Shown piece after piece: positions 18,864-60,280 of a stretch of DNA of 64,000 bases. Position 1 is the stretch's first letter. Every line of letters starts with the position of its first letter. The translations under genes were made by a program, and so were the position numbers. The DNA comes from Patescibacteria group bacterium (GTDB taxonomy: Bacteria; Patescibacteriota; Minisyncoccia; Phycocordibacterales; Phycocordibacteraceae): contig JAGWIS010000001.1 of assembly GCA_028866135.1 (NCBI GenBank), forward strand, positions 13,357 through 77,356, read 5' to 3'. The notes below the pieces were generated by a model. That model searched no databases, was not told the origin of the DNA, and saw nothing but the letters and a program-made list of their open reading frames with translations.

Positions 18864-20570
18864 TCATTTCCTCCTCTTGCGGGAGAGGGCGGCGCGGAGG
18901 AATTCGGTGAAAAGCGGGTGCGGGGAGAGCGGGCGGGCGTTGAATTCGGGATGGAACTGCGTGCCGAGCATGAAGGGATGCCGCTCGCGTGGGAGCTCGG
19001 CTATTTCCATGAGGACGCCGTCGGGGCTCGTGCCCGAGAAGACGAGACCTCCGTCCTCGAGCTGCTTCACGTATTTCGAATTGATCTCATAGCGATGGCG
19101 GTGGCGCTCCTCGACGAGCTCTTTCTTATACGCAGCGCGGGCGAGCGTGCCTTTTTTCAGGTACGCGGGGTAGACGCCGAGGCGCATCGTGCCGCCGTAT
19201 TTATTGTCGGAAAGATGCTTCTTCTGCTCGAGCATCACGTCGACGACCGGGTGCTCAGCGGCCTTCTTGATCTCAGTCGTGTTCGCACCCGCGAGCCCGA
19301 GCACGTGGCGCGCGTATTCGATCACCATGAGCTGCATGCCGTAGCAGAGGCCGAAGTACGGGATCTTCTTCTCGCGCGCGAATCGTATCGCCTTGATCTT
19401 CCCCTCGATACCGCTTTCGCCGAACCCGCCGGGTACGATGATGCCGTCGTATTTCGCAAGCATATCAACGGACTCCCCCCTAGACCGGCCGCTACGGCCG
19501 GTCGGGCGAACATCGCTTCGCGATGTTTTAGCCTTCTCGAGGTCTTTCGAGTTCACCCAGGTGATCTTCGCGCGGCGACCGAGCTTTGCCGCTGAAAACT
19601 TAATCGCCTCGATGACCGAGAGGTACGCGTCGGAAAGCACGAAACTGCCCGTATCGAAATATTTCCCGACGATGGCGATCGAAACCTCCGGCGCCTTGGC
19701 ATTCATCGCCGCAAGCGCGAACTTCTTCCACGCGGCAAGCGACGCCCGCTTCTTCTCCGGCAGCCGGAGCGCGTCGAGCACCGCGTCGCCGAGCTTGTCC
19801 TTCTCGAAATTGAGCGGGGCTTCGTAGATGCTCGTGATGTCGGGAGCGGCGATGATGCGGTCCTTGCGTACATTGCACCAGATCGCGAGCTTCTCCTTGC
19901 GCTTCTCGTCGACCGGCTCTTTCGACCGCGCAACGATAAAGTCCGGCTGCACGCCGTAGGAATTCAAATCGCGTACGGCCATCTGAGTCGGTTTCGTCTT
20001 CATCTCGCCGAGGGTCCCGGGCGTCGGCAAGTACGAGACCATGACGAAAAGCACGTCCTCCGGATGCTGCATCTTCAAGACACGCGCCGCCTCGATGAAA
20101 AGCGCATTCTGAAAATCGCCGATGGTGCCGCCAATTTCGATGACGGAGATGCGGCTGCCGTTATAGGAGGACGCGGCTTCGATGCGTGCGAGGATCTCGT
20201 CGCGCACGTGCGGGACGGCCTCAACGCACTTGCCGCCGTAGCCGAGCGCGCGTTCGCGCTCGATGACCGACTGATAGACCATGCCGCTCGTCATGTAATC
20301 CTCGTTTGTGAGATCCCGACCGAGGAACCGCTCGTAATTCCCCATGTCCTGGTCGGTCTCGAGTCCGCTCCGAAGCACGAACACCTCGCCGTGCTCGGTC
20401 GGATTCATCGTCCCCGCATCGACGTTCAGATAGGGATCAATCTTCACCAGATTCACCGGATACCCTTTTTGCTGGAGAAGGAGGCCGAGCGAGCTCGCGA
20501 CGACGCCCTTGCCGACGCCGCTCATGACCCCGCCGAGAACGAATATGTATTTGTGTCCCTCTTTCGCCAT
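18864..20570 (-). CDS. pyrG: CTP synthase.
   Basis: 568 aa with an N-terminal synthetase domain (VLGGVMSGVGKG) and a C-terminal glutamine amidotransferase domain (GLCYGMQ). Confidence 0.9.
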   Translation of the reverse strand: MAKEGHKYIFVLGGVMSGVGKGVVASSLGLLLQQKGYPVNLVKIDPYLNVDAGTMNPTEHGEVFVLRSGLETDQDMGNYERFLGRDLTNEDYMTSGMVYQSVIERERALGYGGKCVEAVPHVRDEILARIEAASSYNGSRISVIEIGGTIGDFQNALFIEAARVLKMQHPEDVLFVMVSYLPTPGTLGEMKTKPTQMAVRDLNSYGVQPDFIVARSKEPVDEKRKEKLAIWCNVRKDRIIAAPDITSIYEAPLNFEKDKLGDAVLDALRLPEKKRASLAAWKKFALAAMNAKAPEVSIAIVGKYFDTGSFVLSDAYLSVIEAIKFSAAKLGRRAKITWVNSKDLEKAKTSRSDVRPTGRSGRSRGESVDMLAKYDGIIVPGGFGESGIEGKIKAIRFAREKKIPYFGLCYGMQLMVIEYARHVLGLAGANTTEIKKAAEHPVVDVMLEQKKHLSDNKYGGTMRLGVYPAYLKKGTLARAAYKKELVEERHRHRYEINSKYVKQLEDGGLVFSGTSPDGVLMEIAELPRERHPFMLGTQFHPEFNARPLSPHPLFTEFLRAALSRKRRK

Positions 20571-20701
20571 ATCCTGTAGTGAAAAATGGCATCGCTAACG
20601 CGACGCGCATCCATTATTTTTAATAAACGCTCCGACGGCAAGTACGTCGCTTTGAGAAGGCGCTTTGGTATTCCAATGCCATTTTCTACTACGGGACATA
20701 C

Positions 20702-21628
20702 CTAGATCTTCAGATATTTGCGGATAGCGAGCACCGAGGCGACCGCGCCGAGCACGATGCCCGAAAGCGTGAGTATGGAAAAGACGAGCGCGAAGTGGTC
20801 GGCATAGTAGCTTGCGATGCTGAATCCGCCGAACCACCCCTCCGTCTTCGTCCCCGCATACCAAGCCGCGGGCCACAGGAGAATGAGGACCGCGGCGGCC
20901 GCGATGACGCCCGTGATGACGCCGGTCACCACGAAGGGCCCCTGGATGTAGATGTTGCTCGCGCCCACGAGCCGCATAACCGAGATCTCCTCCTTGGCGG
21001 TGTAGATGGCGAGGCGGACGGTCGCGAACGCGATGAGGATCGAGGCGATGGCGAAAAGCGCGATGACCGCGAAGCCAATGGAGCGCGTCGCTTGTATCGC
21101 GAGCGCGAGGCGGTCGATGATCTCCTTGTTCTGCGCGTAGTTGACGCGATCGACGATGGACGTGCCGTCTGAGGAAAGCGCCGGAGACGCTTCGAGGAAG
21201 CTCACGATGCTCTCGTACTGGGTCGGGTCTTTCGCCTGCACCTCAAGCGACGCGTCGAGCGGATTGCCGCCGAGCTCGTTCAGCGCCTGGAGCGTGAGCT
21301 GGTCGTTTGCGTGCCGCGCGCGGAAGGCCGTGAGCGCGTCGGCAGCCGAGGTGTAGGAAACGGTTGCCACCTGCGGCAGCTTCTCGAGCTGATCCTTCAC
21401 CGCGAGGATGTCGGATTCGCTCGCGCTTGTGACGAAGTACACGGACACGTCGACTTTCTGCGTGATCGTCGTGAGCGTGTAGGACAGGAGCGCCGAGAGG
21501 AAAATAAGGGAGGCGATGATCCCGAGCGTGACGGTCATGATGAGCACGGTCGCCGCGGAGACCGCGCCGCCGCGGGCGAAATTCTTTCCGCCGGCGACGA
21601 GCATGCGCTTCGTGACCATCCAGTTCAT
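20702..21628 (-). CDS. ftsX: Cell-division ABC permease FtsX.
   Basis: It lies downstream of ftsE. It has a periplasmic loop and 4 TM helices in FtsX topology. The start is chosen at MNWMV; the ORF track extends to 21694. Confidence 0.75.
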   Translation of the reverse strand: MNWMVTKRMLVAGGKNFARGGAVSAATVLIMTVTLGIIASLIFLSALLSYTLTTITQKVDVSVYFVTSASESDILAVKDQLEKLPQVATVSYTSAADALTAFRARHANDQLTLQALNELGGNPLDASLEVQAKDPTQYESIVSFLEASPALSSDGTSIVDRVNYAQNKEIIDRLALAIQATRSIGFAVIALFAIASILIAFATVRLAIYTAKEEISVMRLVGASNIYIQGPFVVTGVITGVIAAAAVLILLWPAAWYAGTKTEGWFGGFSIASYYADHFALVFSILTLSGIVLGAVASVLAIRKYLKI

Positions 21629-21665
21629 AATGGGTTCAGTATACCAGCCGCGCTCCGGAGCGTTC

Positions 21666-22343
21666 TCATAGCGAGTACTTCCCTCCCGCGTCATCCCGGA
21701 CCACCTTTCCGCGGTCGACGGTGATCACGCGCTTGCCGATGGCGTCGACGACGCCCTTGTTGTGCGTCGTGATGATGATGGTCGTGCCGAGCTCGTTGAT
21801 TTTTTTCAAGATTTCGACGACTTCGTACGTATTGATAGGGTCGAGATTCCCCGTCGGCTCGTCGGCGACGATGAGATCCGGCTGATTGATGATCGCGCGG
21901 CCGATGGCAATGCGCTGTTTCTCGCCGCCCGAGAGCTGGTCAGGAAAATGGGCCGCTTTGTCGGAAAGGTTTACGAGCTCGAGGATGTAGGGCACGTCGG
22001 TCGCAATCTCTTCGTCGGAGCGGCCCGCCGCTTCCATCGCGAACGCGATGTTTTCATACGCGGTTTTGTTTGGAATGAGCCGGAAATCCTGGAACACCAT
22101 ACCGATCTTGCGGCGGTAGTGGTGGAGCGCGGAGCTCGGCAGATCGTTCACGTCGATCGATTCGAAAAAGACGTTCCCGTCGGTCGGCCGTTCTTCGGCA
22201 AGGAGGAGTTTGAGGAGCGTCGTCTTTCCGGCGCCCGAGTGGCCGACGATGGAGACGAATTCTTTGGGGGCGACGGAGATGGTGACCCCTTCGAGCGCCG
22301 CCGTATCCCCGTATCGTTTCGTCACCTTGTCGAAATAAATCAT
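21666..22343 (-). CDS. ftsE: Cell-division ATP-binding protein FtsE.
   Basis: It has Walker A GHSGAGKTT, signature LSGGEKQRI and Walker [11 protein letters not shown], and is paired with ftsX. Confidence 0.85.
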   Translation of the reverse strand: MIYFDKVTKRYGDTAALEGVTISVAPKEFVSIVGHSGAGKTTLLKLLLAEERPTDGNVFFESIDVNDLPSSALHHYRRKIGMVFQDFRLIPNKTAYENIAFAMEAAGRSDEEIATDVPYILELVNLSDKAAHFPDQLSGGEKQRIAIGRAIINQPDLIVADEPTGNLDPINTYEVVEILKKINELGTTIIITTHNKGVVDAIGKRVITVDRGKVVRDDAGGKYSL

Positions 22344-22353
22344 GCGTCGGTTT

Positions 22354-23265
22354 CTATTTTATCCTACCTTCAGCGGCTTGCCCAGCACCAACATTCTGAT
22401 TTTGGTGCTGGGCGTCTATGAACTCGTCGAGGTCGCCTTCAAGGACGCGGTCGGGATTTGAGGATTCATGGCCCGTGCGGTGATCTTTGACCATTTTGTA
22501 CGGGTGGAGGACGTAGGAGCGGATCTGGCTCCCCCACTCGTTTGCGGTCGTGGCGGCGATGGAGCGGCCTTTCGCTGCGGCCTCGCGCTCAGCTTCTTCT
22601 TTAGCGAAAATCTTTGCCTTGAGGAGCTCAAGCGCCTTCTCGCGATTGGCGAGCTGGCTGCGCTCGCTTGAGATATGCACGGAAAGATTCGTCGGTTTGT
22701 GGAGGATGCGCACGGCCGTCTCGCGCTTGTTGACGTTTTGCCCGCCCGCGCCTCCGGCGCGGGCGAATTGTATCTCAAGATCCTCCGGCTTGAGCTCGAC
22801 CTTGTCGGCCGCGACCAGGACCGGGAGCACCTCGACGAGCGCGAAGCTCGTCTGCCGCTTCGCATTCGCATTAAAGGGCGATTGGCGCACAAGCCGGTGC
22901 ACCCCGGCTTCGTGCTTGAGGCGCCCGTAGGCACCCGCGCCGATTATTTCAAGCATGAGATTTCGGTAGCCGCCATGATCGTTCTCATTCGCGTGGAGCT
23001 CGCGCACGCCCCAGCCTTTTACGGCGGCATAGCCCTCATACATGCGCCGGAGCATGCGTGCAAAATCTTCCGCGTCGTCCCCGCCCGCGCCCGCGAGAAT
23101 CGCAAGAGTCGCGTTCCCTCTATCGTGCGGATCGCCCCCGCCGCCATCCTTGAGCGCCTGGTATTCCGCAACGAGTTGCTGCGCCTGACCTTTGTCGAGC
23201 CAGAAATCAGGCGATGCCATCATCGCCTCAAGTTCTTCCAAACGTTTCTTCCCTTTCTCGTCCAT
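22354..23265 (-). CDS. prfB: Peptide chain release factor 2.
   Basis: It has the GGQ motif ([10 protein letters not shown]) and the RF2-specific SPF tripeptide (RQSPFNA). The ORF is uninterrupted, so there is no programmed frameshift. Confidence 0.85.
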
Positions 23266-23282
23266 ACGGGCGAGTATAGCAA

Positions 23283-23310
23283 AGCGCGCGGCCCTCTCGG
23301 ATCGCGCGCT
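23283..23310 (-). terminator. GC-rich hairpin with a weak U-tract between tRNA-Thr and prfB (possible terminator or processing site).
   Basis: The stem AGCGCGCG/CGCGCGCT has a 12-nt loop. On the minus strand it is followed by UUUGCUAU. Confidence 0.25.
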
Positions 23311-23316
23311 ACTTTG

Positions 23317-23389
23317 AGCCGCCCCGGAGGATCGAACTCCGGACCTTCGCGTTACGAATGCGATGCTCTACCAACTGAGCTAGGGCGGC
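23317..23389 (-). tRNA. tRNA-Thr (anticodon CGU), no CCA encoded.
   Basis: Fold: acceptor GCCGCCC/GGGCGGC, D arm GCTC-AGTTGGTA-GAGC, anticodon loop TTCGTAA, T arm CGGAG-TTCGATC-CTCCG, discriminator U. There is one A-C mismatch at 31:39. Confidence 0.75.
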
Positions 23390-23436
23390 AGACCGTGGAA
23401 ATATAGCACAATTTTATTTTTTACGGATTGAGCCGT

Positions 23437-23874
23437 TCATTGCAGCTTTCGAGCTGTGGTTACCCTCTTGCTCACCGCCCTGCCCTTTCTTCCCCTACCT
23501 CTATTGAGTCCTGCATACGTCGGCCCGAGCGCATCGCAATTCGGACAAACAAGACGAAGATTTTCTTCGCGGTTATTCTGCCAATTGCCGTCGATGTGAT
23601 CCGCCACGAGCGGCACCTTGCCGGTTTTCGGGTTCACCTTTGACCATCCGCACAAGCAGCATTTGTTGTCATATTTTTCACGCAAATATCTCTTTACGGA
23701 ATCCGCCACCAAACCGATCGAATTAAGTCCTTTTATGTCTCCCCGTTTCCAGCGCTCGATATAGATCCGGTATTGAAATTCATGCTGGCACGCATTGCTA
23801 CAGTATTTATAAAATGAGCGTGCAGGCTCTTTGCCACACACGGGACAGGGCACGCGCGGTTTCTTCGGATTCAT
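23437..23874 (-). CDS. HNH endonuclease with an N-terminal zinc ribbon.
   Basis: It has CPVCG...C..C followed by LVADHIDGNWQNNREENLRLVCPNCD, the HNH/His-Me finger. The start is taken at MNPKK. Confidence 0.7.
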   Translation of the reverse strand: MNPKKPRVPCPVCGKEPARSFYKYCSNACQHEFQYRIYIERWKRGDIKGLNSIGLVADSVKRYLREKYDNKCCLCGWSKVNPKTGKVPLVADHIDGNWQNNREENLRLVCPNCDALGPTYAGLNRGRGRKGRAVSKRVTTARKLQ

Positions 23875-24018
23875 GCGCCTATCGTAACGCAAATGTAGAC
23901 CAATCAAAAATCCTGTCTTGGTCGTTTTGTTGAAAAACTCTGGAGCCGAGAGTCGGGATTGAATCCCAGTAGGAAACCATCGGAATGGTGCCTACGGGAC
24001 AGGCCGACGAACCTTTTG

Positions 24019-24090
24019 AGCCGGAGGTGGGAATCGGACCCACGATCTTCGCCTTACCATGGCGACGTTCTACCACTGAACTACTCCGGC
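24019..24090 (-). tRNA. tRNA-Thr (anticodon GGU), no CCA encoded.
   Basis: Fold: acceptor GCCGGAG/CTCCGGC, D arm GTTC-AGTGGTA-GAAC, anticodon arm TCGCC-ATGGTAA-GGCGA, T arm GTGGG-TCCGATT-CCCAC (unusual TCC rather than TTC), discriminator U. Confidence 0.7.
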
Positions 24091-24103
24091 CATGGACGTA
24101 CTC

Positions 24104-24195
24104 TACTGCCAAGCGAGCCGAATCAAAAAGGAATGCAGTTCCATTTTGTGAGGCAAGCGACGGCAGAAAGCTTTGCTTACTGCCAAGCGAGCCGA
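24104..24195. repeat. 18-nt perfect direct repeat tactgccaagcgagccga in two copies (24104-24121 and 24178-24195).
   Basis: Seen directly in the sequence, 74 nt apart, between tRNA-Thr(GGU) and a tRNA-like 5' fragment. Its reverse complement contains TCGGC, which could pair with the GCCGA acceptor strand of the fragment. Confidence 0.6.
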
Positions 24196-24244
24196 GCGAC
24201 ATGCGGATGTCCTCATACGCATGTCCGAGGCAAGCGCGGGCAGG

Positions 24245-24283
24245 AAGCGTGCAAGAAACGCTTACCAACTGAGCTATCTCGGC
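24245..24283 (-). pseudogene. tRNA-like 5' fragment (acceptor strand and D arm only).
   Basis: The minus strand reads GCCGAGA-TA-GCTCAGTTGGTAAGC, a canonical tRNA 5' end. No T arm or standard anticodon arm follows, only an 8-bp hairpin GACATGCG...CGCATGTC. Confidence 0.35.
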
Positions 24284-24352
24284 TTCGCGCACCTGTGCAT
24301 ACTAACGGAGTTCTTTCATTCTTTCAATTTCCGTGATGTTTCCGGATGCCCT

Positions 24353-24646
24353 TCAGTACAGCAGGATGCCTACAACGATGACGATGTCGAAGAGTGCGAT
24401 GAATGCGTTCGCGAAGAAAAGCTGCTTGTCTTTGTGCACGGCGCCGTAAAACGCCCAGAGCATGTTGAAAACTGTAAGAAGAGTCCAGGTGAGGAGCGAA
24501 ACGCCCGCTCCGCTTTTCGTGCCGTAGATCTGGAGTATCTGTGGCACAAGCGCGACGGGCGCAAGGATGCCGACGCCGTACATGAGGTAATCGAGAAAAC
24601 GCTTCCACGCGCCCTCAGCAGGAAACGGTTCGAGGCCTTGCGTCAT
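24353..24646 (-). CDS. SemiSWEET (bacterial PQ-loop / MtN3-like 3-TM sugar transporter).
   Basis: 97 aa with 3 TM helices and the PQ motif (LVPQILQIY) followed by a conserved S...W. Confidence 0.55.
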   Translation of the reverse strand: MTQGLEPFPAEGAWKRFLDYLMYGVGILAPVALVPQILQIYGTKSGAGVSLLTWTLLTVFNMLWAFYGAVHKDKQLFFANAFIALFDIVIVVGILLY

Positions 24647-24728
24647 GAGCGCGCGCTTTCGCAGGTGATGGAAGCCGTGCATAGCGCGTATGATAGCCCG
24701 CGCACGCGCGCTATACTAGGCGCATCGT

Positions 24729-25085
24729 ATGGAAAACCTCGCGCACTACGCGAAAGAAGAGCGTCCGTGGGGCAACTTCGAGCGCTTCACGCTGAACGAA
24801 AAGACGACGGTGAAGATCATCGCCGTGAATGCCGGCGAGAGCATCAGCCTGCAGACGCACGAACATCGCGACGAATTCTGGCGCGTCATCAAAGGCTCGG
24901 GCACGATTCGCATCGCCGACAAAGAACATTCGGCGCGCGAAGGAGATCAGTTCTTCAGCCCGCGTCACGCGGAGCACCGCATCACGGGCGGACCCGAAGG
25001 GCTCGTCTGCCTTGAAATAGCCTTCGGCGACTTCGACGAAGGCGACATCAAGCGCCTCGAAGACCGCTACGGCCGCGCGTCATGA
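24729..25085 (+). CDS. Cupin-domain protein (type II phosphomannose isomerase C-terminal-like).
   Basis: It has the cupin motifs ISLQTHEHRDEFWRV...G and H in a second block, and is 118 aa. Confidence 0.5.
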   Translation: MENLAHYAKEERPWGNFERFTLNEKTTVKIIAVNAGESISLQTHEHRDEFWRVIKGSGTIRIADKEHSAREGDQFFSPRHAEHRITGGPEGLVCLEIAFGDFDEGDIKRLEDRYGRAS

Positions 25086-25843
25086 GCGAGGACGACGGGA
25101 ACGACGAGAGCCTTTCCCGCTCCCTCAACGATCCCGCGCTCCGCGCCGCCTACGCGAAGCCCTTCGACGGGCACCGCTGCGTGTTCATCGCCCGGCTTCT
25201 CGGATCGCTTCTCATCCATTCAGGGACGTTCGTTTACGGCCGCAAGCCTTCGTACGCGAAACTGAAAGCGATCGAAGTCATCGCCCGCATCCCCTACCAG
25301 TCGTGGGAGGTCGCGGCGTATACCATCCTCACCGCCCTGTACTCGGACGAACGCCGGGCGATCGAGCTCGCCAAGCTGAATGCCTTCAGTCGCGTGGCGC
25401 AGGACAACGAGACGATGCACGTCGTGGTCATCTCGCAGATCGTAGAGCGCCTCGGCTGCCAGGGATTCTTCCGCCACACGTTCATTCCGTTTCTCTTCTC
25501 GTTCTTCTATTTCTGGATGCTCTACTTTCTCTTTATCCTCTCTCCGCGTTCCGCGCTCGATCTCAACTACCTCTTCGAATCGCACGCATGCGCGCAATAC
25601 CAGGAATTTCTCGATACGGAAGGCGACCGCCTGCGGAAGACCCCGATCGCGTCGGCATTCCTCTCCTTCTACGGGAGGAACGTCAGGAACGAATACGAAT
25701 TATTCGAACTCATCCGGAACGACGAACTCATCCACCGGAACCGATCGGTGAGCGTGCTGAAATCGACTCGGAAACAAGAACGAACGGGGCGAGATGGAGT
25801 TCCTGGCGCTCAATTCCCCTCCGGGGTCGAGGAAGCCGCTTGA
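25082..25843 (+). CDS. Alternative-oxidase-like di-iron carboxylate protein (AOX/PTOX family).
   Basis: Four helix motifs resemble AOX iron ligands: IPYQSWE, DNETMH, LFESHA and IRNDELIHRN, compared with LET, NERMHL, LEEEA and RADEAHHR. Confidence 0.5.
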   Translation: MSEDDGNDESLSRSLNDPALRAAYAKPFDGHRCVFIARLLGSLLIHSGTFVYGRKPSYAKLKAIEVIARIPYQSWEVAAYTILTALYSDERRAIELAKLNAFSRVAQDNETMHVVVISQIVERLGCQGFFRHTFIPFLFSFFYFWMLYFLFILSPRSALDLNYLFESHACAQYQEFLDTEGDRLRKTPIASAFLSFYGRNVRNEYELFELIRNDELIHRNRSVSVLKSTRKQERTGRDGVPGAQFPSGVEEAA

Positions 25844-26469
25844 TCGCCGGAACTTGATTCGTGCATGGACGCGGAAGAGCTCGCTGAAGTCTCCGTGCTA
25901 CCCGCGCCGCCGCCCTCGCATTCCACTTCCATCTCGTTATCCATCTCCGAGCGCGTGCGTGGGCCCACAATGCCAAATCCGGTCGTTTCCGGAGTACCCG
26001 TAGACACGACGTTGTGAGCCGCTTGCCAACGCCGAACGGCTTCCTCGGTCATGGAGCCGAAATACCCCGTAACGGCCCCTTCGGGATAAATATTTCTGTC
26101 CTTCCCGAGGAAGGCTTGCAGCCGCGATACGTCGTCGCCCGTGGAGCCAGCCTGGAGATTCCCGGCCGAGAGTACGGGACATCCGCTGCCGTTCGCGGAT
26201 TGCGCCGATTCTCCAACAGAACTCGACAATCCGCTCGAGACTTGCGTCGAGGTCGCCGAAGCCGTGGTGCCCTCGAGCGCGACCTGCACGTTCGCAATCG
26301 TCGCCGGATCGGCGCCAAAAGCTTGTAAGAGATTGGTGACCGCGTCTATCTGAGCGGCAGTGAGGGAAGCCGCCATGACAGGCGGCGCCGCAGCAAAAAG
26401 GGACGCGGCGAGGGCGGCGCCGATTGTTACGGAAACAAAACGAGAATTTGCGTATGTATTCATATCCAT
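25810..26469 (-). CDS. Secreted protein with a peptidoglycan-binding (PG_binding_1) domain.
   Basis: It has a signal peptide and DVSRLQAFLGKDRNIYPEGAVTGYFGSMTEEAVRRWQ. Ser/Thr-rich linkers flank the domain. Confidence 0.55.
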   Translation of the reverse strand: MDMNTYANSRFVSVTIGAALAASLFAAAPPVMAASLTAAQIDAVTNLLQAFGADPATIANVQVALEGTTASATSTQVSSGLSSSVGESAQSANGSGCPVLSAGNLQAGSTGDDVSRLQAFLGKDRNIYPEGAVTGYFGSMTEEAVRRWQAAHNVVSTGTPETTGFGIVGPRTRSEMDNEMEVECEGGGAGSTETSASSSASMHESSSGDQAASSTPEGN

Positions 26470-26786
26470 AAAACGCCGGGGGAGTGGGTATTAGATAGTA
26501 ACTCGCGTACAGGGCAATGCTAGCACGAGCCAGAACCACAGAATTCACCGTGAGGAGGCTGTGTGGATAAAACGGAAAGACGATTCGTCTTTTTCATTAT
26601 GATGCACGTGGTGCGCGAGAGACGGGACTCTTTCCCTCGACTCTCGCTTCGCCGCCGCTCAGCTCGGTCTGGGCACAGCCTCGCGGCGATCACTGCCGTC
26701 CGCACATCGCTCCGGCATTCAACTCGCAAAGCTTCGCTTCGCGCTCTCGCGCAAAACACAAAGCCCCTTGCGGGGCATGTGTTTTG

Positions 26787-27071
26787 CGCGAGAGACGGGA
26801 CTTGAACCCGCAACCTCCGCCGTGCACGTTTCCACTGCTTTCGAAGTGGCGTGGACTATATCTTCACCATGGGTATTCCGTTAGGTGTTCCGGTATCTAG
26901 TCTCTACGGCGCCCCGCCACACTTTTGCGGTGTGGCGGGTTCCCTCGGTATTCGCATATTCGCCTACGGCGAACGTAGCCTCCACCGATATCCCAGAAAG
27001 TTTCAATCCCGATTTCTCGAGAAAGCTGCACGTCTACAGGGCGGCGCTCTAACCAGTTGAGCTACTCCCGC
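26787..27071 (-). tRNA. tRNA-Asp (anticodon GUC) interrupted by a group I intron, 285 nt in total.
   Basis: 5' exon 27071-27036 is GCGGGAG-TA-GCTC-AACTGGTTA-GAGC-G-CCGCC-CUGU. 3' exon 26824-26787 is CAC-GGCGG-AGGTT-GCGGG-TTCAAGT-CCCGT-CTCTCGC-G. The joined anticodon loop CUGUCAC and the T arm match E. coli tRNA-Asp, and the discriminator is G. Confidence 0.7.
26825..27035 (-). ncRNA. Group I intron (Azoarcus-like, subgroup IC3 type) in the anticodon loop of tRNA-Asp.
   Basis: The minus strand contains GUAGAGACUAGAUACCGG (P7 region; compare Azoarcus GUAGAGACUAGACGGCACC) and GAAGAUAUAGUCC. The intron ends with G. P1 can form between exon CUGU and intron GCAG with a U-G pair at the splice site. 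Confidence 0.7.
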
Positions 27072-27473
27072 ATTCCTAAATCCCGGATCGCATCTTTAAG
27101 CTTGATTCGCTTGCGCGGCAGATGCAACCTCGGAATTTTACCAGTATGATACATAATTCGATGAAGCGCAACGCTGTCGGTATGACTGAAGACCAGCTCA
27201 AAACCCCGAGTCTTTTTCTTTAACGAACCTCCGCGAATACCGCACCTTGTGTGCCCTGCTCTGCCGTTTTCGTTTCTGAATCTTATGCGTGGAGCCAACG
27301 GCGTTTCGGATCATTTCCAGAACGATACGGTCTGTAATGGTGAATTCGATGAAGTGCCCGTCGCGCTTATTGCGAATCATGGAACCATCTGCCGCGAAGA
27401 AACCGAGCACGTATGCCATTTCGGGCGACCATGTCTTGAAGAAATCATGATTCAGGTCTCGGTGCACCGGCAT
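27062..27473 (-). pseudogene. LAGLIDADG homing endonuclease, frameshifted into two ORFs (27198-27473 and 27062-27298).
   Basis: The upstream ORF has the LAGLIDADG motif AYVLGFFAADGSM. Its basic C-terminus breaks into a second frame. Together the two pieces are about 165 aa, typical for single-motif enzymes. Confidence 0.5.
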
Positions 27474-27551
27474 AGGTAAATACTATGATAGGGCATGACT
27501 ACAAGACTCGCGAAGTTGTACGGAAAGAAAATCGAATATTTCTTGTAGATC

Positions 27552-28397
27552 TTGTGGCGATTGTTCCATGGGATTGCCGCATATCCTGCTATCATGACTG
27601 CAATGCGCAATCGCTTCTTCGGTATTCCGATATTGCTTGTCGTTTCCGGCATGTTCGTCCTCGGACTCGCAGGATTCCTGCTCTTTACGACCGGGAACGA
27701 GCGCATCTACTCCGGAGTCTCCGCAGCCACCTCGACCCCGGCTTCTCCAAACACCGCTTCATCATCGCCAACGCGCGCCGGCAAGACCATATACCTCACG
27801 TTCGACATGGATATGAACGAGTTCATGTACAAGAAGACGGTCACGACGGGCGAGAAATGGTACGACCCTGCCGTATTCGCATACCTGGAGCAGAACCATA
27901 CCCCCGCATCGTTCTTCGTATCGGGGCTCTTCGCCGTCGCCTACCCCGACCTCATGAAGAGCCTCGCGTCGACGAGCGAGTTCTCTTTCGAGAACCACAG
28001 CTACGACGAAGCGTCCTTCACCCCGCACTGCTATTGGCTCACTGCCCTCGGGAACGATTCGGCCAAGGCCGCCCAGATTGAAGCGACCGAACGAATCATC
28101 CAGTCGCTCACCGGACAGACACCCAAGTATTTCCGTTTCCCGGGCATCTGTCACGACAAAGCAAGCGACGCACTCGTGGAAAGCTTAGGCTACGTCATCA
28201 ACGACGGGACGGTCGTGCCGAGCGACCCGTTCAACACCGATACCAAGAGAATGGTCCGGACGGTCATGAGCAAGGCGAGGGATGGCGCGACCATCATCAT
28301 GCACGTCGGAGGACATAACGCGCCAGAGAGCCTCTTCTTGCTCGAACAGATCGTGCCCGGCCTCAAGGCCGAAGGATACGCGTTCGAAAAGCTGTGA
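27552..28397 (+). CDS. Polysaccharide deacetylase (NodB / CE4 family), membrane-anchored.
   Basis: It has an N-terminal TM helix, then NodB-like blocks (IYLTFDMDM, HSYDE) and the C-terminal HVGGH. Confidence 0.55.
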   Translation: MWRLFHGIAAYPAIMTAMRNRFFGIPILLVVSGMFVLGLAGFLLFTTGNERIYSGVSAATSTPASPNTASSSPTRAGKTIYLTFDMDMNEFMYKKTVTTGEKWYDPAVFAYLEQNHTPASFFVSGLFAVAYPDLMKSLASTSEFSFENHSYDEASFTPHCYWLTALGNDSAKAAQIEATERIIQSLTGQTPKYFRFPGICHDKASDALVESLGYVINDGTVVPSDPFNTDTKRMVRTVMSKARDGATIIMHVGGHNAPESLFLLEQIVPGLKAEGYAFEKL

Positions 28398-28494
28398 TAT
28401 GACATAACGAACACGATTGCCCTGTTATGGACAACCGTGTTCCGCTGCCGCAATAGTTCGCATCATGCGCGCATGCGGAGTGCGCACAGAGATG

Positions 28495-28848
28495 TTATTT
28501 GCCCGTCGTACCGCTCTCTGGTGCATCCGGCGTGGCGTCCTGATGGTCACCCGTCTGATTCACCTGATCGTTCGGGCCTCCGGCCGGATCGTTCGCAGAT
28601 GTCTGCTCACCGGTTGACGCTTCTGCCGTTGCGTCCTGCACATCCGAACCCTGCGCACCGGACTGGATATTGTCCGTATCAGGACCGCTCGCGTGCTCGC
28701 TATCTGAAGTCTGTACGGTCGTGGAGGAACCGGTGACGACTGGCGTCGTGCTGCCGCTGCTCGCGTGCGCGTACATGCCGATCGTCGCCGCGCTGCCGAT
28801 AAGGAGTACCGGAACCATGAGCGCCGCTTTCTTGAAGAGATTTTTCAT
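28495..28848 (-). CDS. Secreted low-complexity Ser/Thr/Asp-rich protein.
   Basis: It has a signal peptide MKNLFKKAALMVPVLLIGSAA followed by low-complexity sequence. Confidence 0.35.
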   Translation of the reverse strand: MKNLFKKAALMVPVLLIGSAATIGMYAHASSGSTTPVVTGSSTTVQTSDSEHASGPDTDNIQSGAQGSDVQDATAEASTGEQTSANDPAGGPNDQVNQTGDHQDATPDAPESGTTGK

Positions 28849-28955
28849 AATTCGAATCGTTAGTTATGCGGGTAAATGTTCGATTACTATGGCTCAGGCG
28901 ATGCGCTGAGCCTGCGGGCAAGTATGCGCTCGCATGCGTCAAGCGCGTGTAAAGG

Positions 28956-29984
28956 CTAGGCGAGCGGCAAGCGCACCTCGACTCGCGTACCGGAGCCAAG
29001 AACGCTTTCTATCCCTACCGAACCGCCCGAGCGCCCGACAAGTTCTTTCACGAGCGCGAGCCCGAGCCCGCTCCCGGCGCTTTTCTCTCCCTTATAGAAG
29101 GGCTCGAACACGCGCGATAGCGCATCGGGCGCGATGCCGACGCCCGTATCCTTTATCTCGATGAGCGCATAAGCGCCTTGCGGGCGTGCCGTTACCTGCA
29201 CCGTCCCTCCCTTGGAGGTATGCGCGAATGAGTTCTGGATGAGGTTACGCACCGCACTGCCGATATCCGGTACCGCGCGAATCATAAGCTCAGGATCTCC
29301 TTCGTATGAGAGCTTGAGGCCCTGCTCGCGTGCGAGCTTCGTAAACGGCTCGAGCTCTTCGCGAACAAGCGAGTCGAGGTTGAGCGGGCGAGGATTCCCC
29401 ATCCCGCCCTCGAGCCGCACGAGCGCGAGCAGGGTTCCGATGATGCGTTCCATGCGTGAAAGTTCCTCAAGGTTACTGAGAGCAACTTCTCTGGCATCCT
29501 CCGGCCGCCGGTACGCGCTTCGCGCTAGTCGCTCGGTATCGCTACGCATGATGGCGAGCGGCGTGCGCAGTTCATGGGAAGCGTTCGTCGCGAACGCGCG
29601 CTGGGCGCGATTCGCGCGTTCGATAGGACGCAGAAGAAGCCCTGATGCGTAGTAGCTCGCGGCAGTAACGCATAGGAGCAGTGCGATATCGGCATATGCG
29701 AGCGAATTCAGGACGCTTGAGGTCGTGCCGCTCACGAACTGCTGGACGTTGTCCTGCTGCTGCACGTTGTCCGTATCGGCAGGTATGCCGCCCGATTTCG
29801 TGACTTGGCTGCCGATATCGGTCACGTCGGACGTGACGTTCAGGTATACGTACGCGCTGAACGCACCGGCTACCGCGAGTGCCACTGCAAACGACAGCAG
29901 CGTAAATCGGATTCGCGCTCGTACGAAGAGCTTAGAATCGGAGCCGATAGCCGATTCCCCGGATGGTTTCGATTGATACGTCAT
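28956..29984 (-). CDS. Sensor histidine kinase.
   Basis: It has the H box ASHELRTPL, N box, G boxes IKDTGVGI and GSGLGLAL, and two N-terminal TM helices. Confidence 0.8.
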   Translation of the reverse strand: MTYQSKPSGESAIGSDSKLFVRARIRFTLLSFAVALAVAGAFSAYVYLNVTSDVTDIGSQVTKSGGIPADTDNVQQQDNVQQFVSGTTSSVLNSLAYADIALLLCVTAASYYASGLLLRPIERANRAQRAFATNASHELRTPLAIMRSDTERLARSAYRRPEDAREVALSNLEELSRMERIIGTLLALVRLEGGMGNPRPLNLDSLVREELEPFTKLAREQGLKLSYEGDPELMIRAVPDIGSAVRNLIQNSFAHTSKGGTVQVTARPQGAYALIEIKDTGVGIAPDALSRVFEPFYKGEKSAGSGLGLALVKELVGRSGGSVGIESVLGSGTRVEVRLPLA

Positions 29985-30606
29985 CGCAATGCTTTATCAG
30001 TTTAGCGCGCAGGTTGTTCACATGCACGTCCACGACGCGGCTCAACTGATTCGCCGCGAAGTCCCAGAGATGGTCGAAGAGATCCTGGCGGGAGACAACT
30101 TCATGAGGTCGTCCCATGAAATACTCGAGAAGACGGAATTCTTTCAAGGTGAGCGGGAGCGTGTGACCATCGCATCGCGCCTCCTGCGTTGCCGGATCGA
30201 GAGCGAGCGAGCCGACGCGCAAGACCGGCGCATGCGCCGCACGCGGACGCCTCCCGAGCGCTCTGATGCGGGAGAGCAGCTCCGCGAAAGCGAACGGCTT
30301 CACGAGGTAGTCGTCCGCGCCGCAGTCGAGCCCAAGCACCCGGTCCTCAACCGCGTCACGGGCCGTGAGCATGAGAACGGGTGTCACGATGCCGCGCTCC
30401 CGGGCATCCCTGCACAATGCGATGCCGTCCTTGCCCGGCAAAAGAAGATCGAGGATGACGAGGTCGTAATCGCCATGATGGACCGAAAGCCGCCGATCCG
30501 CTGCCAGACCGTCTTTCTCGACGTCGACCGCGTAGCCTTCCTCTTCAAGCGCGCGGGCGATCGATCTCGCGAGCTTCGGTTCGTCTTCAACGAGCAGGAT
30601 GCGCAT
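29932..30606 (-). CDS. OmpR-family response regulator.
   Basis: It has a receiver domain (MRILLVEDE...DLVILDLLLPGKDG) and a winged-helix output domain (...GYRLRF). Confidence 0.8.
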   Translation of the reverse strand: MRILLVEDEPKLARSIARALEEEGYAVDVEKDGLAADRRLSVHHGDYDLVILDLLLPGKDGIALCRDARERGIVTPVLMLTARDAVEDRVLGLDCGADDYLVKPFAFAELLSRIRALGRRPRAAHAPVLRVGSLALDPATQEARCDGHTLPLTLKEFRLLEYFMGRPHEVVSRQDLFDHLWDFAANQLSRVVDVHVNNLRAKLIKHCDDVSIETIRGIGYRLRF

Positions 30607-30615
30607 ATGCGGAGC

Positions 30616-31239
30616 TTACTGTCCGACGACTTCGGCACCGCCCGGAGCCTTGGTCGCCGTTGCATATACCGGTGCGTATCCGGGCGTGCTTACCTCGACC
30701 TTGAACGTGAGCTTATCCGTAGCGGTGCCGTATATGCCGTGCATATTGACTCCATAGTGTCCCGGGCCGGATGCGCCGTCAAAGTTGACGGTACCTGACC
30801 CCTGTGGCGGAAGCGAGAAACCCGTAAGCTGTTTGTAATAGCCCTCTTGCTTGCCGTTTGCAGCATCGACGACGGTATAGTACGCCTCGAAATTCGAGAG
30901 CGTCTTGTTGGTCAAGTTCTTGAGCGTGAACTGCAGGTGGTCGCTCACCGGGTTCCCCGCCGCGTCCACGTTGTTCTCGGTCATGATTGACGAGACGGCA
31001 AAGCCTTTTGCGGTCGCGGCGTTTTTGATCGGATTCGGATACAGGCCGGGAACGATGTCCTCGGCGCCTTGGGCCGACGCGGTACTGGTCGTCGCCTGCA
31101 CTGGAGACGTGTGCGCTGGAACCGCTTGCATAGGAACCGAAGGATGGTTCTGTGTCGTTGTGCGCCCGCCGGAGAGCAAGACAAACGCTCCGACCGCGAC
31201 GACCGCGACGGCGATACCGATAATGACGTTTTTGTTCAT
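30616..31239 (-). CDS. Membrane-anchored extracytoplasmic protein, function unknown.
   Basis: It has an N-terminal TM anchor (VIIGIAVAVVAVGAFVLL) and a Thr/Ser-rich linker. It lies between the response regulator and the ABC permeases. Confidence 0.4.
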   Translation of the reverse strand: MNKNVIIGIAVAVVAVGAFVLLSGGRTTTQNHPSVPMQAVPAHTSPVQATTSTASAQGAEDIVPGLYPNPIKNAATAKGFAVSSIMTENNVDAAGNPVSDHLQFTLKNLTNKTLSNFEAYYTVVDAANGKQEGYYKQLTGFSLPPQGSGTVNFDGASGPGHYGVNMHGIYGTATDKLTFKVEVSTPGYAPVYATATKAPGGAEVVGQ

Positions 31240-31268
31240 ACGAGTATGATTATGTTTCGTAATGCTAT

Positions 31269-32252
31269 TCATGGCGAAGCTGCCATGATGCGTGAGGGAC
31301 GCGCGCTCAGGTACGCGAGTACGATGCTTCCCATAAGGAACACAAGAAGCACGAGCAGGTCAGGCCACTTGTCATGCATGATGAATCCGAGCGACTTGTC
31401 GTTATACGTGGTCTTGATTCCGAGTGTCGCGAACGTGAGACGCTCGTAATGCTTCTCTACTGAGCTCACTTCGAGCGCATTTCTGAAGTTCTCGTACCGC
31501 CTGAACTGGTTTATCACGGCGGTTTGCCCGTCCTGGGTCATATGCAGGTGCGCGAAGAAACCGCCTGGTACCTGGTTGTCAGGATCCATCGTGTCGCCAA
31601 TCTGCGGGATGATGAGCACGAACACGAGCCAGAGCGAGAACGCGAGCATGAGCGCGCGGGGCAGGTTCGGCACGAGGAGCGCGAGCGCCGCTGAGAAACA
31701 GAAGAAGAACAAGAGATACCCGTAGGTATACATGAGCACAAGGCCGAGCTTCATGAGTTCGCTCGCCGAAAACGCGACGTGCCCGACGAATGTGACCGCG
31801 GCGACAGAGAAAACGCCTATACCGAGGACGAGCGCGATAAGAATGATACTCGCACCGAGCAGCTTCCCACCGACAAAACTGCCGCGCGTCACCGGACGGA
31901 CGAGAAGGAGACGCGAGGCGTTGCTCCCTTTCTCCTTTGCGATCGCCAGATAGCCGAGCACGAGCGCAATAATCGCGCCGATGACCTCAAGATACTCGAT
32001 GGTGCCGCGCAGCATTTGGAGCGGATAATATGCGGGCGCAGTAAGCACGATGGACTTCAGCTGGTCCGGCGATAGCTGAGAGAGTGCCGCGTGGTACTGT
32101 GCCACCTGCGACTGGAATGCGAACGAGGCTACAAGGATCGAAACGCCGACGAGGAGAAGCAGGAAAAACGCGAGCGTGGCAAAAAGCGAGTTGCGCAGGG
32201 CATCCGTGACCTCCTTTTTCGCGATGATACCGATTATGCGAAGTCTCTTCAT
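31269..32252 (-). CDS. ABC-2 family exporter permease (second of two).
   Basis: The start MKRLRIIG (ATG 32252) forms an ATGA overlap with the stop of the upstream permease. It has 6 TM helices. The listed N-terminal extension is Arg-rich, probably non-coding. Confidence 0.65.
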   Translation of the reverse strand: MKRLRIIGIIAKKEVTDALRNSLFATLAFFLLLLVGVSILVASFAFQSQVAQYHAALSQLSPDQLKSIVLTAPAYYPLQMLRGTIEYLEVIGAIIALVLGYLAIAKEKGSNASRLLLVRPVTRGSFVGGKLLGASIILIALVLGIGVFSVAAVTFVGHVAFSASELMKLGLVLMYTYGYLLFFFCFSAALALLVPNLPRALMLAFSLWLVFVLIIPQIGDTMDPDNQVPGGFFAHLHMTQDGQTAVINQFRRYENFRNALEVSSVEKHYERLTFATLGIKTTYNDKSLGFIMHDKWPDLLVLLVFLMGSIVLAYLSARPSRIMAASP

Positions 32253-33184
32253 AGGTAGAGATCGCGCGTGACGGCATATCGGCGGAGTGCGAACGCGCTC
32301 GCGCCGATCGCGACACCGACGTAGGCGAGGAGCGCGAACAATGAAGCGATACTGTTGCCGATCCCTCCCCCGAGCATGCCGAGCGCACTTCGCGTGTACA
32401 ACTGACCAACGGAGAACGGGCTCAGGAGGCGATGTGCGGCCGTAAAGAACAACCCTTGGTCCGGGATCGCGCCCGTGAGCGTCACCGGATTCAGGAGGGC
32501 GACCGGGTTCTGCCCAGTCGTCAGTTCCGGCAAGATAAAGACAGCAGCCACCCACACGAGTATCGGCATAAAGAGCGCGGTGGATTCATTTTTCATAATG
32601 ACCGAGAAAAACAGCCCGGCCGCCGCGAAGAATGCGAGGTAGACGAGCGAGACCGCATAAAAGCCAAGGAGCGCCGCGTAACCACCCGCAGGCAAGCGGA
32701 GCGCGGGAATGAAGGCCGCGGAGAACGCGCTCACCGCATACGTTGCAAAGACAATACCCGTAAGCGCGAGCAGTATGCCAAGAAGTTTCGCGCCGATGTA
32801 CCGTGCGCGCGAGATAGGACGCACGAAGACGAGCGGTAAAACACCCGCGGCGCGCTCGCGGATGAATGAGCGGTGGCCGATAACGATGGCGAGCAAGGCA
32901 CCTATGAGAAGCAGGTAGACGAGCATGTTGTCGAACACGAGAAGCGGCGAGACGCCAGTGAGCGGATCCGCCACGATGCTCGTGACGCCCTGTGCTGCAA
33001 GATATGCGACAGACGCGTGGTAGATGGCCTCGGTCGTCGTGCGCGTAGACCACCCGATGTAGACCGAGAAGAACGTCATGGCCATAAAGATGGCGAGGAG
33101 AAGCAGGAACGTCTTCTCGCGCGCGAGCGTCGTGAGCTCATGGCGCACGACGCTCGCGAATACCGATGGCGCACGCGCACTCAT
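32249..33184 (-). CDS. ABC-2 family exporter permease (first of two).
   Basis: It has 6 TM helices and is translationally coupled to the ATPase (4-nt overlap) and to the second permease. Confidence 0.65.
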   Translation of the reverse strand: MSARAPSVFASVVRHELTTLAREKTFLLLLAIFMAMTFFSVYIGWSTRTTTEAIYHASVAYLAAQGVTSIVADPLTGVSPLLVFDNMLVYLLLIGALLAIVIGHRSFIRERAAGVLPLVFVRPISRARYIGAKLLGILLALTGIVFATYAVSAFSAAFIPALRLPAGGYAALLGFYAVSLVYLAFFAAAGLFFSVIMKNESTALFMPILVWVAAVFILPELTTGQNPVALLNPVTLTGAIPDQGLFFTAAHRLLSPFSVGQLYTRSALGMLGGGIGNSIASLFALLAYVGVAIGASAFALRRYAVTRDLYL

Positions 33185-33960
33185 ACGAGCTCTTCCATCT
33201 GCACGTAGATTGCCTCGAGCGACACCTCGTCCGGAAAATCCGCGAGCGTCTTCTCGAGCGACTCGTTGTAGATGAGGCGTCCGCGATTCAACACGCCGAT
33301 AGAGGTGCAGGTCTTCGACACTTCCGAGAGCAGGTGCGTATTCATGAAGATGGTCATGCCTTTTTCTTGATTGAGCCGCAGGATGACGTCACGCAGATTC
33401 TTAATGCCAACCGGGTCGAGGCCGGTCGTCGGCTCATCCAAGAAGACAACCTCGGGTTCGTGAAGTATTGCTTGCGCGAGCCCGATCCGTTGGCGCATGC
33501 CTTTCGAGAAGGTCTTGAGCTTCCTGTGCTCGATGCCGCGAAAATCAAGAAACCCGAGCGCTTCGTCGATACGTTCGTCAACGTTCTTCACACCCGAGAG
33601 ACGCGCGAAATACGCCAGATTCTCATAAGCGGTGAGGTCATTGTAGAACGTGATATTCTCCGGCAGGTACCCAATACGACGACGTACCTCGTCCGCTTCG
33701 GAGACGGTATCGAACCCAGCAATACGCGCTGCACCCGCGGTTTGGCGCAAAAGCGTCGTAAGAATGCTGATGGTCGTCGTCTTGCCCGCCCCGTTATGCC
33801 CAAGGAAGCCGAATATCTCGCCACGAGGGATGGCGAGATTCAAATCATGGAGAACCGTTTCTCCGCCATAAGAGTGCGTCAAACCATCAAGTTCGATGAC
33901 AGGGGCATCTTTCTTTATGTTCGGCTCGACGACTGCATGGGACGGTAATTTCATGTGCAT
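33181..33960 (-). CDS. ABC transporter ATP-binding protein (BcrA-like).
   Basis: It has Walker A GHNGAGKTT, signature FSKGMRQRIGLA and Walker B FLDEPTTGLD. The start is taken at MHMKLP. Confidence 0.8.
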   Translation of the reverse strand: MHMKLPSHAVVEPNIKKDAPVIELDGLTHSYGGETVLHDLNLAIPRGEIFGFLGHNGAGKTTTISILTTLLRQTAGAARIAGFDTVSEADEVRRRIGYLPENITFYNDLTAYENLAYFARLSGVKNVDERIDEALGFLDFRGIEHRKLKTFSKGMRQRIGLAQAILHEPEVVFLDEPTTGLDPVGIKNLRDVILRLNQEKGMTIFMNTHLLSEVSKTCTSIGVLNRGRLIYNESLEKTLADFPDEVSLEAIYVQMEELV

Positions 33961-34034
33961 ACTATATGCACGGGTATGTAAAGAAACTGTAAAGGTCGCT
34001 GCACCCACGAAATGCGAGTGTCTCGTGGTATAAG

Positions 34035-59567: not shown

Positions 59568-60146
59568 CTAAAGAGCTTTGAACTCGCGGAAAACATTCGC
59601 ATAGCGCGCGATGGTGCGGCGCGCGAGCGTGTCGGAGAGATTGAAGGCGGAGCCTTCGTGCGCGATCTGATTGCGCACTTTGTGCGCGTCCCACGCGTCT
59701 TGGAGGCTGTTGATGTGCGCGGGATCGACCGACTTCAGCTTCTCGCCCACACCATCGCCCACGTATCCCTGCTGCCCGAGCACGTCGTCGAGCATGATGT
59801 CGGCTTCGATGATCGCCTCGCGCCATTCGCTTGCGGTCGCCCCGCCGGCCAATTTCTCGATGTGCTTCCAGCGCTCATGTATCTCGCCCGCCGCCTCCTG
59901 CGTGAGAATGATCGTCTGGTAAAATTTCCGCTCGCGCTCGCGCAGCTCGAAGAGGCGCACGGTCGCGTAGATGATAACGAAGAGTCCAAAGACCGCGAGG
60001 ATGTAGCCAATAGCGACAATCCAGAGCCAAAGATGCGCGAGCCACGCAGCAAGACCGGATAGTCCGGTCGAGCCGTAGCACGCGCCATAAATGCACTCGT
60101 AGAGAAGACGGAACCAGTATTCGACGTTCGCCTGCATTCCCGCCAT
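59568..60146 (-). CDS. Membrane protein of unknown function.
   Basis: It has 2-3 N-terminal TM helices and a soluble alpha-helical C-terminal domain, and is 192 aa. Confidence 0.4.
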   Translation of the reverse strand: MAGMQANVEYWFRLLYECIYGACYGSTGLSGLAAWLAHLWLWIVAIGYILAVFGLFVIIYATVRLFELRERERKFYQTIILTQEAAGEIHERWKHIEKLAGGATASEWREAIIEADIMLDDVLGQQGYVGDGVGEKLKSVDPAHINSLQDAWDAHKVRNQIAHEGSAFNLSDTLARRTIARYANVFREFKAL

Positions 60147-60280
60147 ATGCTTCTAGTATACCCCGTGAGATACCCAATATCGTGGCGGATTCACATGATA
60201 GAAGAGGAAAAACTTCACACTATGCGGCTCCGCACATTCGCACGAGACTATCTCATGGGGTATACGTGCAAAGGGCGTTC

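Follow-up and report, generated by a model that had tools for sequence, protein, structure and literature searches.

Organisation of the tRNA-Asp locus

The window, by which we mean the whole 64-kb stretch of DNA analysed here, carries on its minus strand, at 26787-27071, a tRNA-Asp(GUC) gene whose two exons are separated by an insert. The 5' exon (27071-27036; 36 nt, GCGGGAGTAGCTCAACTGGTTAGAGCGCCGCCCTGT) covers tRNA positions 1-35, that is, the 5' strand of the acceptor stem, the D arm, the 5' strand of the anticodon stem and then C32 U33 G34 U35, and was delimited from the sequence, from ARAGORN run with introns allowed and from an alignment of 13 sequences. The 3' exon (26824-26787; 38 nt, CACGGCGGAGGTTGCGGGTTCAAGTCCCGTCTCTCGCG), delimited from the sequence and by ARAGORN, extends from C36 to the discriminator G73; the CCA end is not encoded, the bases after the exon being CAAAAC. 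When joined, the exons yield a 74-nt cloverleaf, identified by ARAGORN as tRNA-Asp(gtc), with a 7-bp acceptor stem that includes one G·U pair, a D arm GCUC/GAGC, an anticodon stem CCGCC/GGCGG, the anticodon loop CUGUCAC, a T arm GCGGG/UUCAAGU/CCCGU and a discriminator G. An earlier sequence-only reading of this DNA had proposed a tRNA-Asp split by a group I intron at this place, with minus-strand exons of 36 nt and 38 nt that rebuild a complete tRNA, the anticodon loop, T arm and discriminator of tRNA-Asp, and an insert of about 211 nt. The exons are borne out by the sequence and the ARAGORN fold, all three tRNA-Asp features hold in the joined product, the insert is exactly 211 nt long and contains both of the intron motifs quoted in that reading, GUAGAGACUAGAUACC and GAAGAUAUAGUCC, and the overall assignment is confirmed by ARAGORN, a family profile and covariation.

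Compared with intronless tRNA-Asp genes, the spliced product finds its best match at 68/74 identical positions (locus L127), and the intronless relatives carry an uninterrupted CCTGTCACGG. The rules of tRNA identity that attach weight to G73, C38 and G10, and to G3·U70, are well established; read from the sequence, the first three elements are present and G3·U70 is absent. ARAGORN, with introns allowed, finds no other tRNA-Asp within the 64-kb window. A hairpin resembling an intrinsic terminator, GCCCC-GCAA-GGGGC followed by a T-rich tail, lies 10 nt past the 3' end of the tRNA (26776-26763, minus). A 17-bp inverted repeat, CTCTCGCGCAAAACACA / TGTGTTTTGCGCGAGAG (26745-26802, minus), takes in the 3' acceptor strand of the tRNA and encloses the terminator hairpin, and its long helix could conceivably rival acceptor-stem formation in the primary transcript.

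Group I identity and fold of the insert

The insert (27035-26825, minus; 211 nt, without an ORF) begins AGACGTGCAG, ends ...AACGTG and separates anticodon positions 35 and 36. Its identity as a group I intron is supported by the Rfam model RF00028, by nhmmer, by covariation and by its fold. With introns allowed, ARAGORN reports the gene as tRNA-Asp(gtc) i(37,211), while default ARAGORN misses the tRNA-Asp gene and a whole-window Rfam scan at the gathering threshold misses its intron. In the covariance-model search that the sequence-only reading had called for, a local RF00028 run over 901 nt aligns 27029-26832 with an E-value of 4.7e-6, at a score of 31.6 bits that does not reach the gathering score of 50. 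The alignment spans P3-P9, and the model places its own P1 onto the true P2. RF00028 is known to be weak on bacterial tRNA introns (Nakagawa et al., PMC13011429; Williams 2020). By contrast with this weak score, an nhmmer profile made from 31 other tRNA-Asp introns, with the window copy left out, matches 27039-26821 over its full length (E=3.1e-54).

The minimum-free-energy fold of the single sequence (z=-2.98) gives the same helices as the alignment of the window with 12 tRNA-Asp loci called by ARAGORN (13 sequences in all), for which RNAalifold returns the tRNA stems together with P1, P2, P3, P4, P5, P5a, P6, P8 and P9; the P7 pseudoknot and P9.0 were added to this structure before pairs were counted. 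Across the resulting 17 helices (13 in the intron, 4 in the tRNA exons), 97.4% of the cells are paired and 38/76 pairs show compensatory changes in the 13 sequences. No shuffled control was as good (0/500), and controls in which the structure was slid along the alignment reached about 40% paired cells and 7-16 compensatory pairs. The columns of P7 are invariant partly because the search pattern by which homologues were found selected for P7, which makes this helix uninformative for covariation. The conserved core is present, with the P4-P6 and P3-P8 domains and the P3/P7 pseudoknot.

P1 (27039-27026, minus) is formed by exon CUGU and intron A1 (27039-27035) with intron UGCAG (27030-27026), and its five pairs are invariant in 13/13 sequences, including the wobble U35·G7 at the 5' splice site. 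The P1 of CUGU with GCAG, the U·G pair at the splice site and the terminal intron G proposed in the sequence-only reading are in agreement with the sequence, the covariation and the homologues. P2 (27022-27007, minus) is a hairpin, UCUCGA-GAAA-UCGGGA, closed by a GAAA tetraloop, with compensatory changes in 6/6 pairs. In P3 the 5' strand UUCUGG (26998-26993, minus) pairs with CCGGAA (26893-26888, minus), and pair counts in the 13-sequence alignment show compensation in 5/6 pairs. The P4-P5-P5a-P6-P6a domain (26988-26908, minus), which is supported by covariation, consists of P4 (26988-26983/26950-26945), P5 (26979-26978/26955-26954), P5a (26973-26969/26963-26959), P6 (26944-26943/26909-26908) and P6a (from 26939); the first pair of P4 changes from U-A to A-U in 6/13 sequences, and P5, P5a and P6a covary as well. 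The 5' strand of the guanosine-binding helix P7, GAGACU (26904-26899, minus), is invariant and aligns to the RF00028 core, its partner in the 13-sequence alignment being AGUCC (26857-26853, minus). The same alignment places P8 at 26887-26865 (minus), as a hairpin CACC...GGUG with a variable inner stem, and together with the fold it places P9 at 26849-26832 (minus), as CCACUUC-GAAA-GCAGUGG with one U x C mismatch in the window copy. The 3' strand of P9.0 and omegaG211 occupy 26827-26825 (minus), where G209 and U210 pair with A184 and C185 (26852-26851) and omegaG211 lies at 26825. The pair C185-G209 becomes U-A in 3/13 sequences, and this covariation of P9.0 fixes the 3' splice site at omegaG 26825. 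An extended P7 including the pair G129-C185 was considered and dropped, P6 and P9.0 covarying instead. In J4/5 the window copy has a G for the usual A (GGUGGAGG vs GGUGAAGG), a variant common to L121 and L124. No P10 pairing is evident in the window intron, and, P10 not being apparent, the exons are presumably aligned by the anticodon stem.

Homologues and the published intron class

Genomes were searched with a pattern for the P7 core (GTAGAGACTAGA followed by GAAGRYATAGTCC at a distance of 25-55 nt), which recovered at least 120 genome loci. Among the matches listed, ARAGORN with introns allowed finds a tRNA-Asp(gtc) with an intron at the same position in at least 12 loci, and two further loci that were mis-called or truncated (L067 and L002) bring this to at least 14 genome loci. 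All taxon-named loci with a tRNA-Asp 35/36 intron among these matches belong to Patescibacteria; the same insertion is seen in at least 14 Patescibacteria genome loci and, in addition, in 19 metagenome loci. Over 193 aligned columns the window intron is 79-92% identical to the other tRNA-Asp introns and 65-73% identical to those of L020, which ARAGORN calls Thr(tgt), and L067, which it calls His(gtg). On closer look L067 is another tRNA-Asp 35/36 intron; L020 is probably a tRNA-Asn 35/36 intron, to judge by the way such genes are mis-called in PMC13011429. The nearest relatives of the intron, of the LAGLIDADG gene described below and of the gene order all come from Patescibacteria metagenome-assembled genomes (L074 of Paceibacterota, L116 and L057 of Zambryskibacteria, L067 and L087).

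Group I introns at 35/36 of tRNA-Asp(GUC) and tRNA-Asn(GUU) have been described in Patescibacteria by Nakagawa et al. (mSystems 2026, PMC13011429; preprint 10.1101/2025.07.03.662931), who report that such tRNA genes escape standard tools or are mistaken by them for Thr or Ala genes. In the same study the tRNA-Asp precursor of GCA_001029755.1 self-splices in vitro, with the junction sequenced and an omegaG-to-C mutant as negative control; in that genome a tRNA-Met(CAU) gene is likewise interrupted, by an intron at 33/34. Their survey finds that intron-bearing and intronless copies seldom coexist in one genome (PMC13011429). Williams (bioRxiv 2020) had expanded the intron-bearing tRNA types to 21, and Asp is not named in its running text. 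The sequence-only reading suggested that an insertion after position 35 of a tRNA-Asp would be an unusual site or host; for tRNA-Asp and tRNA-Asn of Patescibacteria this insertion has been on record since 2025-2026. The window intron itself is not found in the accessible part of the PMC13011429 supplement. The window locus is a further example of a published and experimentally supported kind rather than a discovery, and for that reason offers little novelty.

Splice sites and probable activity of the window copy

Splicing of the window copy, like its transcription and processing, is inferred and would proceed as follows. The precursor transcript would probably include the upstream LAGLIDADG remnant and end at the hairpin at 26776-26763. 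The two exons would be held together by the anticodon stem, and P1 would form between exon CUGU, followed by the first intron base, and intron UGCAG, placing U35 in the U·G wobble. An external guanosine bound in P7 would attack after U35, P9.0 (AC/GU) would then move the last intron base, G211, into the same pocket, and the freed 3'-OH of U35 would attack after G211, joining the exons and recreating the GUC anticodon. RNase P and the CCA-adding enzyme would be expected to finish the tRNA. What the present analysis shows is the exon structure, the fold, the geometry at the splice sites and the homology to a published family; self-splicing at this same junction is known from a homologue (PMC13011429).

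Shifting the boundary by two bases (CU|GUAGAC...AAACG|UGCAC) turns the same gene into a tRNA-Ala(UGC) with an intron at 33/34. Both candidate junctions follow a U and end in G, ARAGORN folds the 33/34 product as tRNA-Ala(tgc), and for some homologues the Ala call is made by ARAGORN and tFind (PMC13011429; also seen here for L164 and L165). In P1, however, U33 pairs with A, and the invariant U·G sits at U35; the covariation of P9.0 sets omegaG two bases further 3' than the Ala reading requires; the tRNA has G73 and C38 but neither G3·U70 nor A73; the intronless homologues show the anticodon region contiguous, as CCTGTCACGG; and sequencing of the product that a homologue yields in vitro puts the junction at 35/36 (PMC13011429). 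On the strength of P1, P9.0, the identity elements and the homologues we reject the Ala reading, to which we assign a negligible probability. One could also speculate that the intron is an inactive relic and this tRNA-Asp copy a pseudogene. The LAGLIDADG gene beside it is clearly degenerate, a state with which such a relic would be in keeping, and the window copy has both the A-to-G change in J4/5 and the mismatch in P9. Against this, all 17 helices are intact and the core positions that are invariant in the family are kept except for that J4/5 change, which also occurs in L121 and L124, whose LAGLIDADG genes are intact; the tRNA exons have a canonical fold according to ARAGORN; the 64-kb window offers no second tRNA-Asp, and intron-bearing and intronless copies are rarely found together in one genome (survey in PMC13011429). 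A relic intron in a tRNA-Asp pseudogene is very improbable, if slightly less so than the Ala reading. The interpretation we favour, with a probability of roughly 0.93, is that the insert is a group I intron splitting tRNA-Asp(GUC) at 35/36 in what would be a functional gene of a Patescibacteria (CPR) bacterium.

A LAGLIDADG gene abutting tRNA-Asp

Directly upstream of the tRNA, at 27473-27065 (minus), lies a decayed free-standing LAGLIDADG endonuclease gene, recognised by a Pfam LAGLIDADG_3 match, tblastn, alignment, and blastn against L121 and L074. The ORF at 27473-27198, which carries the Pfam LAGLIDADG_3 match, encodes the N-terminal 82 aa with the motif LGFFAADGS, and the C-terminal 59 aa follow in another frame, ending 7 nt inside the tRNA. 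Relative to L074 and L121, about 270 nt including motif 2 have been deleted, and because of this loss we consider the window gene a pseudogene. Only motif 1 is found in the window, whereas two LAGLIDADG motifs in one intact frame occur in homologues elsewhere. Intact homologues are about 225 aa long, with the motifs LGFFAADG and YFDGDG (for example L074 2295-3017 and L121 1501-2175), and their commonest stop is a TAG at tRNA positions 8-10. Both catalytic aspartates are invariant in the 75-78 intact homologues, and the closest solved structure to the protein is 2DCH, a putative homing endonuclease.

Among the matches listed, tRNA-Asp is immediately preceded by an intact gene in 10/14 intron-bearing genome loci, the loci without it being L019, L048, L057 and L116. 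A scan of metagenomes with the LAGLIDADG protein gave 80 loci, of which 75 had enough downstream sequence to be judged: 55 have an intronless tRNA-Asp downstream, 19 an intron-bearing one and 1 no tRNA. Intact relatives precede tRNA-Asp, with or without an intron, in about 85 other loci, and the presence of the intron is scattered over the LAGLIDADG tree in at least 10 patches. The LAGLIDADG gene is thus conserved beside split and uninterrupted tRNA-Asp genes alike, and it is not mentioned in PMC13011429.

Could the neighbouring enzyme have mobilised the intron? In such collaborative or hitch-hiking homing, the free-standing endonuclease would cut tRNA-Asp loci lacking its gene, and repair would copy the gene and, with it, the intron lying 36 nt downstream. 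The frequent linkage in genomes (10/14, plus the remnant in the window), the invariant catalytic aspartates, a homing endonuclease as nearest solved structure and the patchy occurrence of the intron on the LAGLIDADG tree would all agree with this, and decay of the endonuclease gene, as in the window, fits a homing cycle. On the other hand, 55/74 of the LAGLIDADG-linked tRNA-Asp genes are intronless, which implies that the site of intron insertion in its own host cannot be what the enzyme targets; the conservation of the gene beside these intronless genes therefore weakens targeting of that site, and with it simple collaborative homing onto it. Moreover, the synteny LAGLIDADG, tRNA-Asp, tRNA-Thr, tRNA-Thr is common to several classes and suggests vertical inheritance, four intron-bearing loci do without the gene, and in a small unbiased sample the gene is present in 1/4 intronless and 11/15 intron-bearing loci, a difference that, with four independent intronless loci, is not significant. 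Mobilisation by the neighbour, through this scheme of cutting and copying, is unlikely in our view. An obligatory role of the protein as a maturase can be rejected, the intron persisting without the gene (L019, L048, L057, L116) or beside a decayed one (the window), and is also contradicted by the protein-free splicing of a homologue (PMC13011429).

As a tentative and rather unlikely extension, the intron might not stand alone as the largely immobile element of the published account, but form a conserved Patescibacteria module with a free-standing double-motif LAGLIDADG gene ending in the first 10 nt of tRNA-Asp. Double-strand breaks made by the enzyme, and the repair tracts that follow, would then spread the intron or keep it in place by hitch-hiking or collaborative homing, and the downstream duplicated tRNA 3' ends would be the scars. 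Under such a reading the window would represent a late stage of the cycle, with the endonuclease gene decayed and the intron intact.

Flanking repeats, gene order and a second split tRNA

The 3' end of tRNA-Asp, from the T loop to the discriminator and one further base, recurs as an exact 18-nt repeat 157 nt downstream of the tRNA (26612-26629 vs 26785-26802, minus), and the sequence preceding this repeat could fold as an acceptor/T-arm minihelix. Comparable 3'-end repeats occur in 4 other intron-bearing loci, namely L048 (three tandem 139-nt units), L113, L134 and L195; the roughly 59 intronless loci examined show no such repeat. The duplicated 3' end could be an integration scar or the relic of a replaced 3' end.

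The order LAGLIDADG, tRNA-Asp, gap, tRNA-Thr(GGU), tRNA-Thr(CGU) is shared by the window (22354-24090, minus) and the distant Patescibacteria loci L067 and L087. In the window the tRNA-Thr genes are followed by a 303-aa RF2-like ORF, possibly prfB with a frameshift, and then by an FtsX homologue. Because the window encodes RF2, FtsX, GatA and LigA, it is part of a cellular chromosome; a phage origin was considered and rejected, a collection of 50,697 phage records having yielded no match to 20000-34000 by megablast or to the locus by blastn. The stretch at 4001-8000 has a GC content of 39-42%, compared with about 58% in the rest of the window, and may be a foreign island.

A second split tRNA, tRNA(CAU), lies at 59398-59081 (minus), with a 5' exon at 59398-59367, an intron at 59366-59120 and a 3' exon at 59119-59081. 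Its intron of 247 nt, inserted at 33/34 (CU|...G|CAUAA), scores 56 bits with RF00028 and so passes the gathering threshold. In the ARAGORN output the gene is wrongly labelled tRNA-Ser(tga); its A1 x A72 mismatch and A11:U24 point to an initiator tRNA. Since the tRNA(CAU) and tRNA-Asp introns are only 51% identical, they represent different lineages; the Met CAU 33/34 type is already known (PMC13011429). The order gatA, a 192-aa protein and the split tRNA (59568-61720) resembles that of gatA, a homologous protein and tRNA-Asp in the Zambryskibacteria loci L116 and L057. A further ARAGORN call, "tRNA-SeC" at 60724-60896, is a false positive within gatA.

Significance

The main finding by itself adds little, being another instance of a recently published intron class. 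Standard tools do miss these genes, as default ARAGORN and the Rfam gathering threshold both did here, and without intron-aware searches tRNA-Asp seems to be missing from such genomes, whose completeness is then underestimated. Of greater interest is the setting of the gene: across many Patescibacteria a LAGLIDADG gene, decayed in the window, is joined end to start with tRNA-Asp, a linkage unreported in PMC13011429. There the tRNA introns are described as being without endonucleases and therefore largely immobile (PMC13011429). A link between enzyme and intron would require this view to be revised; without such a link, what remains is a still unexplained, widely conserved overlap of a gene with a tRNA in genomes that keep very little.

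Comparison with known systems

Free-standing homing endonucleases occur beside introns that have no endonuclease of their own, an arrangement known as collaborative homing and exemplified by F-CphI beside cyanophage psbA, and SegB of phage T4 is a free-standing homing endonuclease in a tRNA gene cluster. The window resembles these systems in that the endonuclease gene lies outside the intron and immediately beside the intron-bearing gene. Unlike them, the LAGLIDADG gene is mostly found beside intronless tRNA-Asp, and in the window it is decayed.

With the intron of Azoarcus pre-tRNA-Ile(CAU) and other introns of IC3 type (Leu UAA, fMet, Arg CCU), the window intron shares the P7 core GUAGAGACUAGA...GAAGAUAUAGUCC, small size, membership of a self-splicing class and a location in the anticodon loop, and our P7 search pattern also recovered Leu, Met, Arg and other host tRNAs. 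Like the Azoarcus-like tRNA introns it has GAAA loops on P2 and P9 and no P7.1/P7.2 helices, and its architecture is IC3-like (no P2.1, P5abc or P7.1/7.2). The IC3-type tRNA introns are inserted at 33/34, 34/35 or 36/37, however, and the window intron at 35/36; over 193 aligned columns its identity to tRNA-Met/Ile(CAU) and tRNA-Leu introns, betaproteobacterial ones included, is only about 56%; and covariance-model classification assigns the tRNA introns of Patescibacteria to subgroup IA, not IC (PMC13011429). The label "Azoarcus-type" given in the sequence-only reading thus holds for the P7 core motif and the compact architecture and no further. It is only loosely right, and the window intron belongs to a tRNA-Asp-specific lineage.

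The closest comparison is with the published 35/36 class, with which the window shares the host tRNA, the insertion site, U(-1), omegaG and the short ORF-less architecture. Its intron is 78% identical to the published intron of GCA_023898525.1 and 66% identical to the in vitro validated one of GCA_001029755.1, and, like the latter genome, the window has in addition a tRNA(CAU) interrupted at 33/34. It differs from the published class in coming from a different genome and in its neighbours, a duplicated tRNA 3' end and the remnant of a LAGLIDADG gene, neither of which is described there.
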